Part shown: positions 4,504-14,193 of the stretch, one piece after another
Layout: every line of letters starts with the position of its first letter
Position numbering within the stretch: position 1 is the stretch's first letter
Source of the DNA: a virus
Taxonomy: Duplodnaviria > Heunggongvirae > Uroviricota > Caudoviricetes
Strand: one strand, 5' to 3'
Virus record (IMG/VR): IMGVR_UViG_648276665_000002
Span: 1 to 15,065 of that record
Length of the DNA: 15,065 nt
Translations under genes and position numbers: made by a program
The notes under the pieces: generated by a model
The model's database searches: none
Seen by the model: the letters and a program-made list of their open reading frames with translations, nothing else
Told to the model about the DNA's origin: nothing

Positions 4504-5733
4504 TCAACCACCAACGCTACCTTTCCCCACCAGCGCTTTAATGGCAGAGGTGTCTTCCAGGATACAGTCAAAACGATGGAAGGCCAGAAAACCGGTCTGA
4601 TCATATTCCGCGTAACGCTCAACCAGACGTTTAAGAATCATGTATCGCACACGACGGATAATGAAGCGATCAAAGTCACCACAGAACATGAATTTTTTAC
4701 CCGCCCCGATATCATCAATTTCCTGATCAATGACATACGGTACATTCAACACTGAAGCAGGTGCCACACCAACAATATCCGGCAACCATAAAGGGCGTCC
4801 CTGACCGTCTTCCATCTCACTGATCAGTTTCAGCGTATTATCGTTAAATGCCAGGCGGAATTTCGGTCCGCGACGATATGCAGGATCAATGCTGTGTTTC
4901 AGAGCCAGAATTTCCTGCCACTTCACCGCATTTGCCGCGGCAGTCTGTGTTGTGCCGGTCACTGATGCTGCCAGCCCTTTGGGTTGTTTAGGCGTACCAG
5001 CCCCCGTCCCCTGAATCAGATAACGGGCTTCACCACGACCAATACGTTCAGCAATGCGACGGGCAAGATAAGCTTCCATATCGATCGCGCTGTCCTGCAG
5101 CAACTCATTAGACACACGAATGATTTTCGATGTCATTTTGAGCGCCCCAAGGCTTCCCATACCGAAATCGGTGTCTTCTTCACCGGCTTCTTCATTTTCG
5201 CCCAGCAGAACACCAACTTCGGAAGTACCATCAGCTGTTGCCCACTCCATAGTGCGACCGTCAGAAGTGGTCAGAATCTGCGCCACACTGGCGATGCCAC
5301 CGTAGGATTTCATTTTCTCAACAACTTTCGCCAGGAATGTTTCTGGTACGGTATATCCGCCCTTTTCATCCTGAGCTACACCCTGGGCACGAAGTTCACG
5401 CAACGCCTTTCGTTCTTCTGATGTCAGCTCACTGGCACCGTGACGCATCCACTTATCAAAAACCTGAGCTCGTTTCTCATCCTGTTGTGGATTGTTTTCC
5501 GGATCAAGATTCTGACGCTGCTCTTCCTCATTGCTTTCAATGTACGCCTGATCTTGACGACGCAGTTCTTCTTCGCGTGCAATTCGTTCATCAAGCGCTT
5601 CCAGTTCGGATTTTGCTTTGTTCCACTCAGTGCGCTGCTCTTCCGTCCATGCGTTATCACCAATTTTTTCATTCAGGGCGCGCATGTCAGTTGCGATAGT
5701 ATTACGTTTCTGTTTCAGTTCATGCAGTTTCAT
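4504..5733 (-). CDS. Major capsid protein, HK97 fold, with N-terminal scaffolding (delta) domain
   Basis: 409 aa; AAGGAAA RBS; N-terminal ~120 aa highly charged coiled-coil-like region (KQKRNTIATDMRALNEKIG...EEELRRQDQAYIESNEEEQRQ), then a capsid body; directly downstream of the prohead protease. Confidence 0.9.
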   Translation of the reverse strand: MKLHELKQKRNTIATDMRALNEKIGDNAWTEEQRTEWNKAKSELEALDERIAREEELRRQDQAYIESNEEEQRQNLDPENNPQQDEKRAQVFDKWMRHGASELTSEERKALRELRAQGVAQDEKGGYTVPETFLAKVVEKMKSYGGIASVAQILTTSDGRTMEWATADGTSEVGVLLGENEEAGEEDTDFGMGSLGALKMTSKIIRVSNELLQDSAIDMEAYLARRIAERIGRGEARYLIQGTGAGTPKQPKGLAASVTGTTQTAAANAVKWQEILALKHSIDPAYRRGPKFRLAFNDNTLKLISEMEDGQGRPLWLPDIVGVAPASVLNVPYVIDQEIDDIGAGKKFMFCGDFDRFIIRRVRYMILKRLVERYAEYDQTGFLAFHRFDCILEDTSAIKALVGKGSVGG

Positions 5734-7565: not shown

Positions 7566-7716
7566 GCGTCCCCCTTCTGGCCATAGCCAGTGCGCCCACC
7601 AGCAGTAAACCGCCGGACAGCATCAGAGCCGGAGCCATACCAAACTGCAGGTAAAACCCGCACGTAAGCAGGCCAAAACCAGCCAGCCCGATAACATCAG
7701 CAATTAGTGATTTCAT
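7555..7716 (-). CDS. Small putative two-helix membrane protein between terminase and portal
   Basis: ATG at 7716..7714 overlaps the terL TGA (ATGA). 53 aa, [53 protein letters not shown], two hydrophobic stretches; overlaps the portal start by 11 nt. Found by manual translation. Confidence 0.4.
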
Positions 7717-9446
7717 AGAATTAAGAGAGCATCGTCCGGATCAAGAGATGAGAGGAAATCGTCGGGTTCTTTGAGCATTGCCCGACCGATCGCCATAATC
7801 AGTGCAACCGCACCATCGATTTTGTTTTCCGCCTGCTCCTTGACAGGCTTCACCACATCATCGTTACCCGGAATGGTTTTGCCGACCACGTTGCCGATAC
7901 ACCAGGTCATGATGGGATTGCCATCATGATGAAAGCGCCCCGATTCAATTGCCGCTTCCAGCTCTTTCATCGGGTCGGACATGTTGGTGTAGTTCTGAAT
8001 GATAGTGATGGGGTTCAGGTCTTCATCAGCAAGGTCATGTGACAACCCGGTCGCCCCGAAGGGGTCGATGGGTGACTCACTGACCGGGCTGATTTTGTTC
8101 GCCGCTTTGGCCTCCTCGAGGATGTAGCGATAATCCACCTCCGCACCATCGGTAACGGTCAGAACGCCCATTTCCACCCATTTCTGAAAGCGTTCGGCTG
8201 TCCGGCGATCTTCATTTTTCTCGACGCTGTACACCGTGTCATACGGTACCCAGAAGCGCGGAGCCACACTGTAGTAATGCGTTTTACCGTCAATCTCGCG
8301 GGTATAAAGTCGCGCCATGCTGTTCATATCCAGCTTACGCGCCAGGTCAAAGGCCAGAATGCACGGCTGCCCCTCGAACTGCTCAAGGGTCAGTGATTTA
8401 TCCTCGCAGCTCTGCCAGCTCACCAGGTTGAAATACGCCGAACGCGCCGACACCCAGATATTGAGGTGTTTTGTTTTAAAGACGTTTGCCAGACGGGCGT
8501 TATTTTTCGCACGCTGCTGCTGACTTAACAAAAATTCGCGATAAACCGACACGCCAATATTTGGATTGGCTTTTTCCAGCACCTGCGGGTCGGTCCAGTC
8601 ATCGCCTTCGTCAACGGTATAGATGATCCCGAACAGTTCATCGTTGGGTACCGAACCGTTGAGCATCTCGATAACTTCCCGCCGCTTGTCGTAGCACGGC
8701 CCCTCAATGTTGTACCCGGCGGTGGTGATGGCCCACATCAGTGGCTGACGTCGCGCGCCCATCCCGGTAAGCATCGTGGTATAAAGCGCATCGGTGGCGT
8801 GCTCGTGATATTCATCCACCACGGCACAGTGGGGTGATGAACCATCACCGGGGTTACCGATCAGCGGTTCAAACCGCGCGCCATCCTCCGGACGGTTCAT
8901 GTTTGAGGCGTTAACCTCAATCCCGAACGCTTCCGTCAGCATGGGTGTGCGTTTACACATCAGTCGCGCCGGGCGAAAGACTTCCCACGCCTGTTTCTCT
9001 GTCGTGGCACCGGAATACACTTCCGCGCCAAACTCGTTATCACAGGCAAAACAATACAGGGCAACACCGGCAGAGATTGCCGATTTGCCGTTCTTACGGG
9101 GGATTTCGGTATACACCTCCCTGAAGCGGCGCAGCCGGGAGCCTTTATTGACCCAGCCAAACGCACAGCAGATCACAAAGAGCTGCCACGGTTCCAGCGT
9201 GATGGGCATCCTCTTGAATGCCCACTCCCCCTTGGTGTGTGGCAACAGCTGAATAAATTTCGCGGCCCGTTCAGCCAGGTCCTTGTCGAAGCGGTAACGA
9301 AACGACTTACTTTTTTCCGCCATCAGGTCATCAAGATGGCGCTGGCAGGCCTGAATCACAAACTGGCAGGCCACAATCTTTCCGCGCACGACATCACGGG
9401 CATACTGATTGGCAGCATTTACGTTGGGGTAAGATTTCCGGCTCAT
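7713..9446 (-). CDS. Terminase large subunit
   Basis: 577 aa; ATG at 9446..9444 overlaps the terS TGA (ATGA); N-terminal ATPase-like and C-terminal nuclease-like regions; followed by the portal gene. Confidence 0.95.
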
Positions 9447-9937
9447 GATTCGATGATTTTCAGAAACGGGTTAGTGGCTTTCTTCTGCCCCGCCAGGCCA
9501 ATCAGACGCTGGCGGCTGCTGGGGTCGAGTCCGAGCATTGCCCCCGTGCTGCTCATCTCGGACTCCTGTTCTTTCTTGGCGGTCAGCTCCGGATTTTTGA
9601 CCATGCCACCCATTGCACCGGTGATGGTGTTGCCCTGTCTGGCAATATTTTTCACGGCACGCCGCCAGAACTCGTAGGCCACGCACCACCGCTCAAGCAC
9701 CGCGAGGTCAGTCACGCACAGCAGGCCCTGACCGCAGAGTTCTTTGGTTGTCAGTTGCCACATGATCGTGGCGAGAGGGAGATCTTCTTCAGCGAACCAC
9801 TCCGGTGGCTCAACACCTTTGATGGGCGTAAAAACAGGTTCATCTTTATTCAGGGCTCGCTTGCCGGGGTTTCCGGCCAGCGCCTTGCGCGCCGTTGGCT
9901 TGGGGCGACGCCCGGAACGCCCCGCCGTTCCAGCCAT
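9443..9937 (-). CDS. Terminase small subunit (P27-type)
   Basis: ORF-track start at 9946 is GTG; the likely start is ATG 9937..9935, with AGGAG about 8 nt upstream. Basic N-terminus ([13 protein letters not shown]); sits immediately before terL, downstream of the HNH gene. Confidence 0.8.
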
Positions 9938-9961
9938 ATGCGGCACTCCTGGTTAAATTTC

Positions 9962-10045
9962 ATTTTTCGCGGGTATAAAAAAACGATGGGGCGGGCAGTC
10001 CGGAAGACGTCAGGTCACAGGGATTTGACCCGCCCCTCCCCTCTG
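9962..10045 (-). other. Structured intergenic region between HNH and terS: long hairpin plus T7; candidate terminator/attenuator or cos/terminase recognition region
   Basis: Perfect 8-bp inverted repeat ggggcggg (9988-9995) / cccgcccc (10030-10037) with inner palindromes (gacgtc; ggtca/tgacc); on the minus strand it is followed by T7 (plus-strand A7 at 9977-9983). Confidence 0.3.
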
Positions 10046-10062
10046 GCAGTTGAGAACTATTA

Positions 10063-10413
10063 TCACTTTAACCGTTCACGGGCCGTCTTCGCCTTATGAC
10101 ACGGCCAGCACAGACTCTGCAGATTACTGTCGGCATCAGTGCCGCCATGCGCTTTAGGGATGATGTGGTCAACAGTTTTCGCCTCACGCACCACACCAGC
10201 GCGCAGACATAACTGACACAGGCCTTTGTCACGCTTCAGGACACGCGCGCGGATACTGTCCCACTTCGAACCGTAGCCGCGCTGATGACGGGATTGTCCT
10301 GGTTTGTATTGCTTCCAGCCTTCGCTTTTGTGGCTTTCGCAGTAGCCTGACGGGTCTGTGGTTGTAGAGCGGCAGCCGCGAACACGGCAGGCTTTTGGGG
10401 TTCGAGGGGGCAT
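10063..10413 (-). CDS. HNH endonuclease (terminase-associated)
   Basis: 116 aa; N-terminal CxxC pair (CRVRGC...C), then HNH motif DHIIPKAHGGTDADSNLQSLCWPCH; directly upstream of terS as in HK97-like packaging modules. Confidence 0.85.
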   Translation of the reverse strand: MPPRTPKACRVRGCRSTTTDPSGYCESHKSEGWKQYKPGQSRHQRGYGSKWDSIRARVLKRDKGLCQLCLRAGVVREAKTVDHIIPKAHGGTDADSNLQSLCWPCHKAKTARERLK

Positions 10414-11170
10414 TATTAATGTCCTAAATAGTTTCCTCTCTAAAAACTAATTTGTGTTAGGGAAATCATTAAATGAAGTGAACCTTTTAGTACCCACTGT
10501 AAAATTCACTTCATTAATATTTAACCAAATACAATGAATGTTCCAAAAGATGCTAATGATATATTTATCAGAGAATCCATACGAGCCTTAATTTCTGGCG
10601 TATTCTCGACCTCAGTACGCCATTGATTGACTGCCTCAATCATATCTCGACAAAACACATCTATTTGCAACTGAAGTTTGCCATTTAAGTGATTTAAATG
10701 CACTTGGCAATTTGTCCTAGGTGGTGGTGTAAAATTAAACTGCATCATTCTTTTCCTGTTCTCTGGATCCTGTCCAGCATGTAAACAAGAACAACGATAC
10801 AGCCAAAAATCATCCGCATAAAATCGACACTGTTCATGTGTACCGGATGTATATTTATTTTCAAGATAACGAGAAACCCAATCTTTATACCATTTCCCTG
10901 TTTCACCCTTACCTATTTTGGGACGTTCAACGCTCCTGCAAATATCAGGCATAGCAAGAGCCATAAACAATGCCGCTAACCAATTCTCACTTTCAATTGA
11001 AGATTCAATTGATTTTATAAACCTTTCCATAACTCACCTTTATATTATTTGATGATTATATTTATAGCACAGTTACAATCATTTTCCGGAAAATATTTAT
11101 TCATTTTGATATCCTATTTTTAGAATATCCTTTTTATCTCTATTGCATTGCGCTAATGCAGATAACAAAC
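10414..11170. other. AT-rich cargo island A between the lysis cassette and HNH/terminase
   Basis: Base composition drops visibly between about 10414 and 11170 relative to flanking phage genes; contains one well-formed ORF with its own RBS. Confidence 0.6.
10521..11030 (-). CDS. Hypothetical protein of unknown function (cargo of island A)
   Basis: 169 aa; AGGTGA 5 nt upstream of ATG 11030..11028; TAA stop at 10523..10521; AT-rich codon usage unlike neighbouring genes; hydrophobic C-terminal segment (LINISLASFGTFIVFG); no family recognised. Confidence 0.6.
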   Translation of the reverse strand: MERFIKSIESSIESENWLAALFMALAMPDICRSVERPKIGKGETGKWYKDWVSRYLENKYTSGTHEQCRFYADDFWLYRCSCLHAGQDPENRKRMMQFNFTPPPRTNCQVHLNHLNGKLQLQIDVFCRDMIEAVNQWRTEVENTPEIKARMDSLINISLASFGTFIVFG

Positions 11171-11414: not shown

Positions 11415-11625
11415 GCTGGTTAGCCTCTATAACTGTATTGATGATTTGCAGTGATTGCAGAACGTTACGGGTAATGGCAGTTGCTGATTCAGCATTTCGT
11501 ATAGCCTCATCAGCACGCTCCTTTTCGTGCAGATATTTGCTGTAGTAATGCCCGGCAGACCAGATGAAGGAACCAATGACGGTAACAAAGAAGGCAACAA
11601 TAACCAGCTTATATCTCAGCTTCAT
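11233..11625 (-). CDS. i-spanin (Rz-like)
   Basis: 130 aa; N-terminal TM segment (LVIVAFFVTVIGSFIW) then a long charged helical region; directly downstream of the endolysin and containing the Rz1 ORF. Confidence 0.7.
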   Translation of the reverse strand: MKLRYKLVIVAFFVTVIGSFIWSAGHYYSKYLHEKERADEAIRNAESATAITRNVLQSLQIINTVIEANQHAKQQIALESQRTQEDIKVAVADDDCASRPVPAAAADRLRKYADSLREHSGGTTASQPDF

Positions 11626-12085
11626 TTACCACCCCACCAGCCTCTTTAAACCGGGAAATCAGGTCGCTAATTTTATGTTCATACTGACCGTAACCTGCAC
11701 CAGGTAAAGACGCCCAGATATTGCTGCAACGGTCGATTGCCTGACGAATATTGCCGCGATCAATCATCGGTAAAGCGCCACGCTCTTTAATCTGCTGTAA
11801 TGCCACTGAGTCCTGGCTTCTGGGAGAGAAGTCTTTCAGCCCAAGCTGCTTGCGGTAAGCATCCCACCAACGTGAAAGAAGTTGATAACGGCCTGCAGCT
11901 GTTGATTTGAGTTTCGGGTTTAGCGTGACAAGTTTGCGAGGGTGATCGGAGTAATCAGTGAAGAGTTCGCCACCGACAATAACGTCATAACCGTGGTTAC
12001 GTGTCGGTTGTCGCCCGTTATCCGTTCCTTCTGACCATGCCACCATATCCAGGAAAGCTTTACGCTGGGAATTTAGTACCTGCAT
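11609..12085 (-). CDS. Endolysin, lambda R-type lytic transglycosylase
   Basis: 158 aa; near-colinear match by eye to lambda R (QRKAFLDM.AWSEGTDNGRQ.TRNHGYDVIVGGELFTDYSDHPRKLVTLNPKLKST.AGRYQLLSRWWDAYRKQLGLKDFSP). Confidence 0.9.
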   Translation of the reverse strand: MQVLNSQRKAFLDMVAWSEGTDNGRQPTRNHGYDVIVGGELFTDYSDHPRKLVTLNPKLKSTAAGRYQLLSRWWDAYRKQLGLKDFSPRSQDSVALQQIKERGALPMIDRGNIRQAIDRCSNIWASLPGAGYGQYEHKISDLISRFKEAGGVVNEAEI

Positions 12086-12088
12086 AAA

Positions 12089-12415
12089 TTACTCCTTAGA
12101 GCCACCAAACTTATTACCGATTACTCTCATTGCAGCCCCACGAATAGCATCGACCCCGATCAGCCCAACGCCGCCACCAATGGCAACAGAAAGAGATTTA
12201 GGCCATCCGACATACTCAAGAGCGGATGCAAAAGTCAGCGTCAGAGCACCACAGAGCAAAATCTCGAGCGTTTTTCGTTTCCAGCCACCACCACCGCCAA
12301 AATAGGCAATGCGCAAGCCAGCCATAACGATCGACATAATCACTGCGCCCAGCGGTGTGTCTCCACGCCACCAGCTCTGGACCAACTCCAGCCAGGTATT
12401 TGGGTTATGAGGCAT
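12089..12415 (-). CDS. Holin
   Basis: 108 aa; hydrophobic Gly-rich segments consistent with 2-3 TM helices; immediately upstream of the endolysin. Confidence 0.75.
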   Translation of the reverse strand: MPHNPNTWLELVQSWWRGDTPLGAVIMSIVMAGLRIAYFGGGGGWKRKTLEILLCGALTLTFASALEYVGWPKSLSVAIGGGVGLIGVDAIRGAAMRVIGNKFGGSKE

Positions 12416-12697: not shown

Positions 12698-13981
12698 ATG
12701 ACAGCAGAAATAGCCGTATTTAACAAGACCGCAGTAGCTTTAGCCGCAGATTCAGCTGTAACGATTTCTGGAGGCGGCAAACATAAAATCTATAATGGCG
12801 CTGAAAAGCTTTTCGCTCTAACTAAACATCATCCTGTAGGTTTGATGGTATATGGAACTGGTGATCTCTGCACAGCTCCATGGGAGCTTATCATTAAGGC
12901 TTATAGAAAGGATTTAGGCTCTAAATGTTTTGACTCTTTGGAGGAATATGCTGAGGATTTCTTCAATTATCTACAGTCGGCTAAATCAATCATCACACCA
13001 GGTATGCGTGAGGCTCATCTTTATCACTTCCTGAGCGAGATTGTATTCAGCATGCTTGTTGATGCTTTTTCTGAAGGTCTCGAACCAACATATTTCGTTA
13101 ACTTCGATAAGAATCAATTTGTTACAGACCTCACGAATTATTGCAACGATCTCCTTACAAAATTATCTGATATTAATTACTTTGATGGTTTTACTCCGGA
13201 TGATGAACAAGCAGCCCAAACCTATGCTTCATCAGTTACCCAACGCATCATTGCTCAAAAGTTTAGTGACTTTGATTCAATATCCATAACCCCACAGTTG
13301 ACAAAAGCAGTTAGTGATGTATTGGCAGCTATGATATGCAAGCAAAGTGATATTGGTTCCGTCTCTGGGATTGTGATTGCAGGTTATGGCGATAAAGACT
13401 ATTACCCTAAAGTATTATCATATGAAGTTTGTGGCTTCTTTAATGATAAAATCAGGAAAACCACAGATGCTGACAAGTGCTGCATCACTCCTAATTGCGG
13501 AGTGACTCCCTTTGCGCAAGAGGATGAAGTTTCTGCTTTCATGCAAGGAGCTAGTTCACATCTTATTCAAAATCTTCATGCTGAGTATCAACGTTCTATC
13601 GGCGATTTACTTGATGGTATTGATTCAGTAATCACAGATTTGGTGCCCACTTCAGATATCGAAGGAGCCAAGGATGCTATAGTTGATGTAGTGCGCAGGA
13701 CTGTTTCCGATTGCAAGGGGCGTATTGATAGCTTTGTCCGAGAAAACTATGTTGACAAAGTCGTAAATATGATCGAGTTTTTACCCAAGCAAGATTTAGC
13801 TTATATGGCTGAATCATTAGTAAATTTAACCGCTTTCAAGCGCAAGGTCTCCGATGATACTGAAACAGTGGGAGGCCCCATAGATGTTGCAATCATTTCT
13901 AAAGCTGATGGTTTTATCTGGGTTAAACGTAAGCACTATTTTGCAAAAGAACTGAACCATCACTACTTTTCACGGTCATAG
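12698..13981 (+). CDS. 427-aa protein with a putative N-terminal-nucleophile (HslV/proteasome-beta-like) hydrolase domain and an unassigned C-terminal region
   Basis: ATG 12698, TAG at 13979-13981. Begins M-T (MTAEIAVFNKTAVALAADSAVTISGGGKHKIYNGAEKLFAL..VGLMVYGTGDL); compare HslV [24 protein letters not shown]...KKVRRL...AGFAGGTAD. Thr directly after Met, Asp at the Asp17-equivalent position, KLF as in proteasome GKKLF, a GxG-D motif, and CGVTPFAQ (267-274) versus HslV GSGGPYAQ. No clear SD upstream. Confidence 0.6.
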   Translation: MTAEIAVFNKTAVALAADSAVTISGGGKHKIYNGAEKLFALTKHHPVGLMVYGTGDLCTAPWELIIKAYRKDLGSKCFDSLEEYAEDFFNYLQSAKSIITPGMREAHLYHFLSEIVFSMLVDAFSEGLEPTYFVNFDKNQFVTDLTNYCNDLLTKLSDINYFDGFTPDDEQAAQTYASSVTQRIIAQKFSDFDSISITPQLTKAVSDVLAAMICKQSDIGSVSGIVIAGYGDKDYYPKVLSYEVCGFFNDKIRKTTDADKCCITPNCGVTPFAQEDEVSAFMQGASSHLIQNLHAEYQRSIGDLLDGIDSVITDLVPTSDIEGAKDAIVDVVRRTVSDCKGRIDSFVRENYVDKVVNMIEFLPKQDLAYMAESLVNLTAFKRKVSDDTETVGGPIDVAIISKADGFIWVKRKHYFAKELNHHYFSRS

Positions 13982-14004: not shown

Positions 14005-14154
14005 ATGTCACTTAAGCAAGCCTATGAAAGAACTCAACCCAAAAGCATCAATGATTTCTTTCAGTTGAGTACTTCTGGAAAGAGTCGACGTACTGTAACA
14101 AGCCAATCTAACTTCTTTACTAAATTGAACAAAACATTACCTGCACAATCCTAA
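14005..14154 (+). CDS. Small hydrophilic basic protein (49 aa), second gene of the island B operon
   Basis: AAGGGGA 5 nt upstream of ATG 14005; MSLKQAYERTQPKSINDFFQLSTSGKSRRTVTSQSNFFTKLNKTLPAQS; TAA at 14152-14154 immediately followed by the terminator hairpin. Confidence 0.4.
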   Translation: MSLKQAYERTQPKSINDFFQLSTSGKSRRTVTSQSNFFTKLNKTLPAQS

Positions 14155-14193
14155 AAAGTTAAAAGCCACTACGGTGGCTTTTAACTTTTATTT
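14153..14193. terminator. Bidirectional intrinsic terminator shared by the island B operon (+) and the Q gene (-)
   Basis: Perfect 12-bp stem gttaaaagccac / gtggcttttaac (14158-14169 / 14174-14185) with tacg loop, flanked by A5 on the 5' side and ttttattt on the 3' side, so a U-tract follows the hairpin on either strand. Confidence 0.65.

Follow-up and report, generated by a model that had tools for sequence, protein, structure and literature searches.

The interval between the HNH endonuclease gene and terS in the window, the whole 15,065-nucleotide stretch of viral DNA analysed here, is very probably the cos site of a lambdoid prophage that resembles SfV/SfI and carries a packaging module of the HK97 type. 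Late in infection, the small and large terminase subunits, TerS and TerL, with help from the adjacent HNH nuclease, would recognise a site of about 90 bp (10041..9953) on concatemeric DNA and nick the two strands on either side of TGCCCGCCCC, as read on the coding strand. The result would be 10-nt 3' cohesive ends and the division of replicated phage DNA, at each cos, into genome-length pieces. The terS-proximal end would become the left end of the genome, from which packaging would run, and a G-rich element upstream of the cut, the G-box, may act like cosQ of lambda when the motor reaches the next cos. Downstream of the cut, a T-tract and the sequence ACCCGCGAAAAATGAAATTTAA would serve as the TerS site, working as in HK97 through the G:C pair of ACCCG and the adjacent A-tract. 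The features of the locus are collected in Table 1.

Table 1. Genes and cos sub-sites of the late operon in the window, listed in the direction of transcription. A2 is the alignment of relatives described in the text.
Feature	Position	Strand	Remarks
Holin gene	12089-12415	minus	
Endolysin gene	11609-12085	minus	
Rz/Rz1 spanins		minus	between endolysin and ORF 10521-11030
ORF of unknown function	10521-11030	minus	between Rz/Rz1 and HNH gene
HNH endonuclease gene	10063-10413	minus	Pfam HNH, E 2.3e-16
HNH-terS gap, 125 bp			carries cos region
G-box GGGGAGGGGCGGGTCAAATCCCTG	10041..10018	minus	A2 columns 26-49, up to 2.0 bits per column; several columns 99-100% conserved
G-box conserved core GGGGCGGGTCAAA	10036..10024	minus	
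Variable spacer	10017..10002	minus	mostly <0.8 bits; length constant within 1 nt
Cut-site core GGAC, cut, TGCCCGCCCC, cut, ATC	10001..9985	minus	in register with SfI, phi644-2/phiE125 and HK97 ends
Cohesive end 5'-TGCCCGCCCC-3'	9997..9988	minus	predicted 10-nt 3' overhang; identical to SfI 10-nt gap
T7 tract (A-tract DNA)	9983..9977	minus	+5..+11 from cut; T in 84-100% of sequences, A2 columns 87-91
Block C ACCCGCGAAAAATGAAATTTAA	9974..9953	minus	candidate TerS binding site (cosB-like)
AGGAG Shine-Dalgarno of terS	9950..9946	minus	
terS, small terminase, P27 / Terminase_4 family	9443-9937	minus	Pfam PF05119, E 2.3e-21; PHROG 83
terL, large terminase, ATPase + nuclease	7713-9446	minus	Pfam TerL_ATPase, TerL_nuclease

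A single late operon, all of it on the minus strand, runs from holin, endolysin, Rz/Rz1 and HNH through cos to terS and terL, followed by the portal and prohead protease genes and a capsid gene whose product has the HK97 fold. Pfam matches bear out the placement of the region between HNH and terS that the first-pass annotation, made from the DNA letters, had proposed. The layout is that of an HNH-type cos module, with the HNH gene directly upstream of terS-terL and cos between them. The HNH protein is 38% identical to HK97 gp74 over 65 amino acids, and among solved structures the closest is that of the packaging-associated HNH protein of phage GVE2 (5h0m, E 2e-12); by homology, it is probably an accessory nuclease for cos cleavage, as in HK97-type packaging. 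For HK97 itself, gp74 is reported to stimulate terminase cleavage at cos (PMC9410871, PMC11331095). TerL aligns with HK97 gp2 over 520 columns at 25% identity (E 2e-29), and the two proteins have two Pfam domains in common.

The strongest evidence for the cos reading, which was one of two readings offered at first pass, is identity to a phage whose genome ends have been mapped. By megablast against phage genomes, the HNH-cos-terS segment of the window shares 93-99% identity with its counterparts in Shigella phages SfV, SfIV, SfI and SfII, and E. coli phage SKA5 and Salmonella phage 118970_sal3 belong to the same identity group over HNH-gap-terS. Run-off sequencing of SfI virion DNA termini, compared with the prophage, left a 10-nt gap, 5'-TGCCCGCCCC-3', and the authors classified packaging as cos-type, not headful (pac) (PMC3636060). 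The final bases of the SfI GenBank record are this same TGCCCGCCCC, and the record starts with the next base. The cos of SfIV was stated to be identical, and that of SfV was postulated (PMC3851460). All four Shigella phages have the same 10-nt end and the same gene order as the window, with few flanking substitutions; the base after the overhang, for example, is A in the window and SfV but G in SfI. Where the cohesive end of the window lies, and how long it is, are therefore predicted by transfer of the cut from SfI, with 10 of 10 positions identical.

Database records of the Shigella phages also break within the HNH-terS gap, although the break point is not always a physical one. Position 1 of the SfV record, NC_003444.1, corresponds to window position 10004, 7 nt upstream of the 10-mer (TCCGGAC, then TGCCCGCCCC), and so is not where the DNA molecule physically ends. 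Arbitrary break points within this gap are also seen in the SfII and ST64B records.

Comparison with other experimentally mapped cos sites, one of the checks suggested at first pass, agreed with the assignment, as the cuts of SfI, phi644-2/phiE125 and HK97 all fall in the same alignment columns. Phages phi644-2/phiE125 of Burkholderia have a 10-base 3' single-stranded extension, 5'-CGCCCGCTTC-3' (PMC2920897), and Burkholderia phage phiBtTUL1a carries CGCCCGCTTC in the columns occupied by the SfI 10-mer. HK97 ends likewise are 10-nt 3' overhangs (PMC9410871, PMC11331095). The HK97 record ends in ...TGAC, cut, CGCCGCCAAA and restarts with GTTTG, in register with GGAC, TGCCCGCCCC and ATCG of the window, although the HK97 overhang itself is unlike that of the window. 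For the SfI group, 3' polarity of the overhang is likely by analogy with HK97 and phiE125, and because run-off reads stop short of a 3' overhang, leaving a gap, whereas a 5' overhang would give overlapping reads.

Relatives came from three sources: phages of Klebsiella, Burkholderia, Pseudomonas, Moraxella and Psychrobacter with TerS 40-88% identical to that of the window; a one-genome-per-species collection, which gave 80 loci; and HK97 itself. The alignment, A2, contains 79 distinct sequences, each taken with 92 nt before and 27 nt after a CGCGAAA anchor, and is almost gap-free. These relatives span Enterobacterales, Pseudomonas, Comamonas, Burkholderia, Moraxella and Psychrobacter. Within A2, cos appears as a series of blocks in fixed geometry: a G-box of the form GGGG.GGGTCAAA, a variable spacer, GAC, cut, N10, cut,.TC, a T-tract, and block C. 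In 78 of the 79 sequences, 24 or 25 nt separate the G-box from the A of GAC, and in 76 of the 79 the distance between GAC and the CCCG of block C is 29 nt. In the cut core, every sequence has the A of GAC, and conservation of the flanking C, G and C is 90-95%. Part of block C, CCGCGAAA, is 97-100% invariant among the 79 relatives, whose TerS proteins are only 40-50% identical at the extremes, and the block occurs once in the window. Prophages of Xenorhabdus, Photorhabdus, Morganella and Providencia carry 50-70 extra nt between block C and the ATG of terS; block C therefore belongs to cos, rather than to the ribosome-binding region. Comparison across these relatives shows cos to be made of linear double-stranded DNA blocks at fixed spacing, and no hairpin.

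A second G-box-like match in the window, at 4695-4707 in the capsid gene, was rejected, since it has no cut motif 25 nt downstream and is within chance expectation. Vibrio phage H2 (L090) encodes the same TerS family with an HNH neighbour, but there just 6 nt separate the HNH and terS genes. That HNH-terS junction has neither a G-box nor a cut site nor block C, and the cos of the H2 branch must therefore lie elsewhere or inside a gene.

What had first drawn attention to the region was an 8-bp inverted repeat, and this is indeed present (GGGGCGGG at 9988-9995 and CCCGCCCC at 10029-10036, complementary at 8 of 8 positions and 33 nt apart). Also as described are the palindromic pieces GACGTC (10006-10011), GGTCA (10013-10017) and TGACC (10026-10030), and a T7 run on the coding (minus) strand that begins 4 nt past the stem. 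The accompanying description of the region as highly structured and GC-rich fared less well. Its RNA fold, at -29.9 kcal/mol against a shuffle mean of -27.5, has a z of -0.67, and its DNA fold a z of -0.90; G+C richness is real locally, but the region overall is 53% G+C versus 51% for the whole window. Statistically, the repeat is unexceptional: perfect inverted repeats of 8 bp with a loop of 3-60 nt arise about 14 times per dinucleotide shuffle of the window, and such a repeat turns up in 5.7% of shuffles of the 101-nt region alone. A search of the region against Rfam gave no match at the gathering or the E-value threshold.

Nor do the comparative data fit a hairpin that encloses the site: the arm at 9988-9995 is contained in the cohesive end, while the arm at 10029-10036 is part of the G-box, a separate conserved element. 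Across A2, the eight stem pairs are formed in 66.8% of cells, compared with 68.3% in column shuffles (492 of 500 shuffles score at least as high) and with 56-64% in slid controls, in which the partner was moved by 1-3 columns. Neither covariation between the repeat arms nor, by RNAalifold, a single predicted pair (0 pairs) was found in the 79-sequence alignment. Perfect 8-bp complementarity of the arms is confined to the E. coli/Shigella/Salmonella lineage. The palindrome halves GACGTC and TGACC, both in the variable spacer, are not conserved in the relatives of A2. We infer that the perfect repeat is incidental, the consequence of a C-rich cohesive end lying opposite a G-rich box.

These results bear on the other reading offered at first pass, a rho-independent terminator in which the GGGGCGGG/CCCGCCCC stem and U7 would stop lysis/HNH transcripts before the packaging genes. 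We consider this improbable, although a G+C-rich stem of 8 bp does stand 4 nt upstream of the coding-strand T7. Such terminators have a loop of 3-8 nt and a U-run 0-2 nt away, whereas here the loop is 33 nt and the spacer 4 nt; a consensus terminator scan makes no call at the repeat, the fold is no better than that of shuffled sequence, and the stem is paired in relatives no more often than in the column shuffles described above, with no covariation and no pair from RNAalifold. A strong terminator at this place would, moreover, split the late operon unless antitermination overrides it. As many as 65 of the 79 relatives keep the T-tract without any terminator-shaped hairpin before it, so the tract is conserved for another reason, most simply as A-tract DNA in a packaging site. 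Unlike the window and most relatives, a Xenorhabdus subclade has a canonical hairpin of 7-10 bp with a 6-8 nt loop directly before the T-run; termination on top of cos is thus possible in the family, and would not exclude cos function. In these Xenorhabdus prophages (L123, L124, L126-L129 and L140), the loop of the terminator-shaped hairpin is the cohesive-end core, and T6-7 follows. In that subclade, termination may be superimposed on cos.

Similarly improbable is the idea that the inverted repeat is functional in itself, taking part in terminase recognition by cruciform or hairpin extrusion or through a symmetric dimer bound to both arms. All relatives, HK97 included, do have a G-rich box upstream and a C-rich end downstream, so that partial dyad symmetry is always present, and GAC...GTC often flanks the 10-mer. 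The arms nevertheless fail to covary and pair no better than shuffled or slid controls, their perfect complementarity is limited to the enterobacterial lineage named above, the DNA fold (z = -0.90) is unexceptional, and just one arm is cut in SfI, phiE125 and HK97. We give almost no credence to the last alternative, a chance repeat in an intergenic spacer with headful (pac) packaging from elsewhere: the repeat alone is within chance expectation, but SfI virion DNA has defined ends at exactly TGCCCGCCCC, from which cos rather than pac was concluded (PMC3636060), and phages of several bacterial orders conserve about 90 bp at fixed spacing, but not the flanks or the spacer.

In HK97 too, cos lies between HNH and terS, and TerL (gp2) and HNH (gp74) are homologous to those of the window. 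The HK97-type loci, counted as HK97 plus the 65 loci in which both G-box and cut site could be located, have 25 nt between G-box and cut core, as does the window. Downstream of the cut, in contrast, they carry a sequence of their own, AACGCTAACCCGATTTTTTT, block C is absent, and their TerS is a different one. HK97 and the window both have ACCCG and an A/T-tract downstream of the cut, at +19..+22 in HK97 and 4 nt closer, at +14..+18, in the window, where CG and then A5 follow. The HK97 TerS site spans +15..+29 and needs the C:G pair of ACCCG and the adjacent A-tract (PMC11331095).

Similarity between the two small terminases is not detectable at the level of sequence: BLASTP, Pfam and hhalign found none between the TerS of the window and HK97 gp1, which is not a Terminase_4 member, and a sequence search with the TerS profile against solved PDB structures returned nothing. 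An AlphaFold model of TerS has a pLDDT of 76, with a basic N-terminal region, residues 1-25, below pLDDT 50. When the model was used in a fold search, the HK97 TerS-DNA complex, 8pop, came second and was the best meaningful PDB neighbour (probability 0.91, target-normalised TM 0.56, E 0.54). The E value of 0.54 is not significant, and the weak resemblance of the modelled fold to HK97 TerS is at most suggestive.

The two halves of the site appear to follow different proteins. Since HK97, whose TerL and HNH are homologous, has them too, the G-box and cut core would be recognised by the TerL/HNH side of the machinery. Block C occurs only with the Terminase_4 small-terminase family and is therefore, together with the T-tract, a candidate for, and probably is, the binding site of the P27-family TerS. 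Such assignments of blocks to proteins are correlative, and the apparent modularity is drawn from two terS families, since HK97 with its close relatives counts effectively as one lineage. The block ACCCGCGAAA(A/T)(A/T)T.AAA.TT is conserved from Enterobacterales to phages of Pseudomonas, Burkholderia and Moraxella. We offer, tentatively and with rather less assurance than the cos assignment itself, a description of the 90-bp cos as a modular site. A G-box 24-25 bp upstream of the cut would be required, and would be read by TerL/HNH in a cosQ-like or positioning role, across unrelated TerS proteins; the P27-family TerS would recognise ACCCGCGAAA(A/T)(A/T)T.AAA.TT.

Among other known systems, Burkholderia phages phiE125/phi1026b/phi644-2 have the same TerS family (about 50% identity), the same block layout and an overhang in the same columns, but 4 of the 10 overhang bases are not the same, their G-box is more degenerate, and they infect other hosts. 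In lambda, the order cosQ-cosN-cosB-Nu1 is analogous, with an upstream element, a nick site, a TerS site and the terS gene in succession, and a bend-prone A/T tract follows the nick site as it does in the window. This is an analogy, not family membership. Lambda has 12-nt 5' overhangs and no HNH protein as partner, and its TerS, Nu1, is unrelated and works with R-sites and IHF. Assignment of the window to the lambda type of cos was rejected, its TerS being of the Terminase_4 family rather than Nu1 and its overhang 10 nt long.

The cos site of the SfV/SfI phage group is already known, having been mapped in SfI (PMC3636060), and the HK97-type packaging class is well studied. In a non-exhaustive literature search, we found no description of a G-box at fixed spacing common to HK97-type and P27-type systems, and none of the ACCCGCGAAA block as a candidate P27-TerS site; the only biochemically defined sub-site in HK97-type packaging that the same search found was the HK97 TerS site. 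The dissection into sub-sites is a modest, testable addition and introduces no new kind of element. It supplies four sub-sites (G-box, cut, T-tract and ACCCGCGAAA block) that can be tested for HK97-type packaging.

The site is a common one. Among 5426 complete E. coli genomes, 1162, about one fifth, contain the 125-bp gap between HNH and terS, and no annotated feature stands at it among the eight E. coli matches listed. More than 590 viral contigs encode a relative of the TerS of the window, and the best 80 of these are 99-100% identical to it. The result therefore marks the genome ends of a common E. coli prophage type at an otherwise unannotated site, which is useful for calling prophage boundaries and orientation, for work with read-start pile-ups, and for predicting mobilisable satellites or plasmids that carry cos.

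Many SfV-type and HK97-type cos regions have a Fur-box-like inverted repeat (AAATGAGA-N5-TCTCATT, or AATGATAATCATTATCATT) 10-25 nt upstream of the G-box. The copy in the window, at 10048-10066 on the minus strand, overlaps the HNH stop codon and matches 13 of 19 positions; clearer examples occur in relatives L107, L145, L151, L156 and L157 and in HK97 (L006). At least 13 positions of the 19-mer Fur consensus are matched in 14 of the 79 sequences, compared with 0.4% of shuffles. The repeat could belong to cos as an additional sub-site, or serve as a regulatory operator.

Two other inverted repeats in the window are perfect. One, of 11 bp (AATGAAGTGAA ... TTCACTTCATT, 10472-10515, 22-nt loop), lies in the A+T-rich DNA that separates ORF 10521-11030 from the HNH gene. 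The other is a 16-bp hairpin with a 4-nt loop (AAAAGTTAAAAGCCAC TACG GTGGCTTTTAACTTTT, 14154-14190), flanked by an A-run and a T-run and so shaped like a bidirectional intrinsic terminator. It stands just after a plus-strand ORF, 12698-13981, which is on the other strand from the late operon, with the regulatory region on one side and the holin gene on the other. The 427-aa product of this ORF matches PHROG 5990 (function unknown) over its full length (E 1e-236), and the placement of the gene is moron-like.
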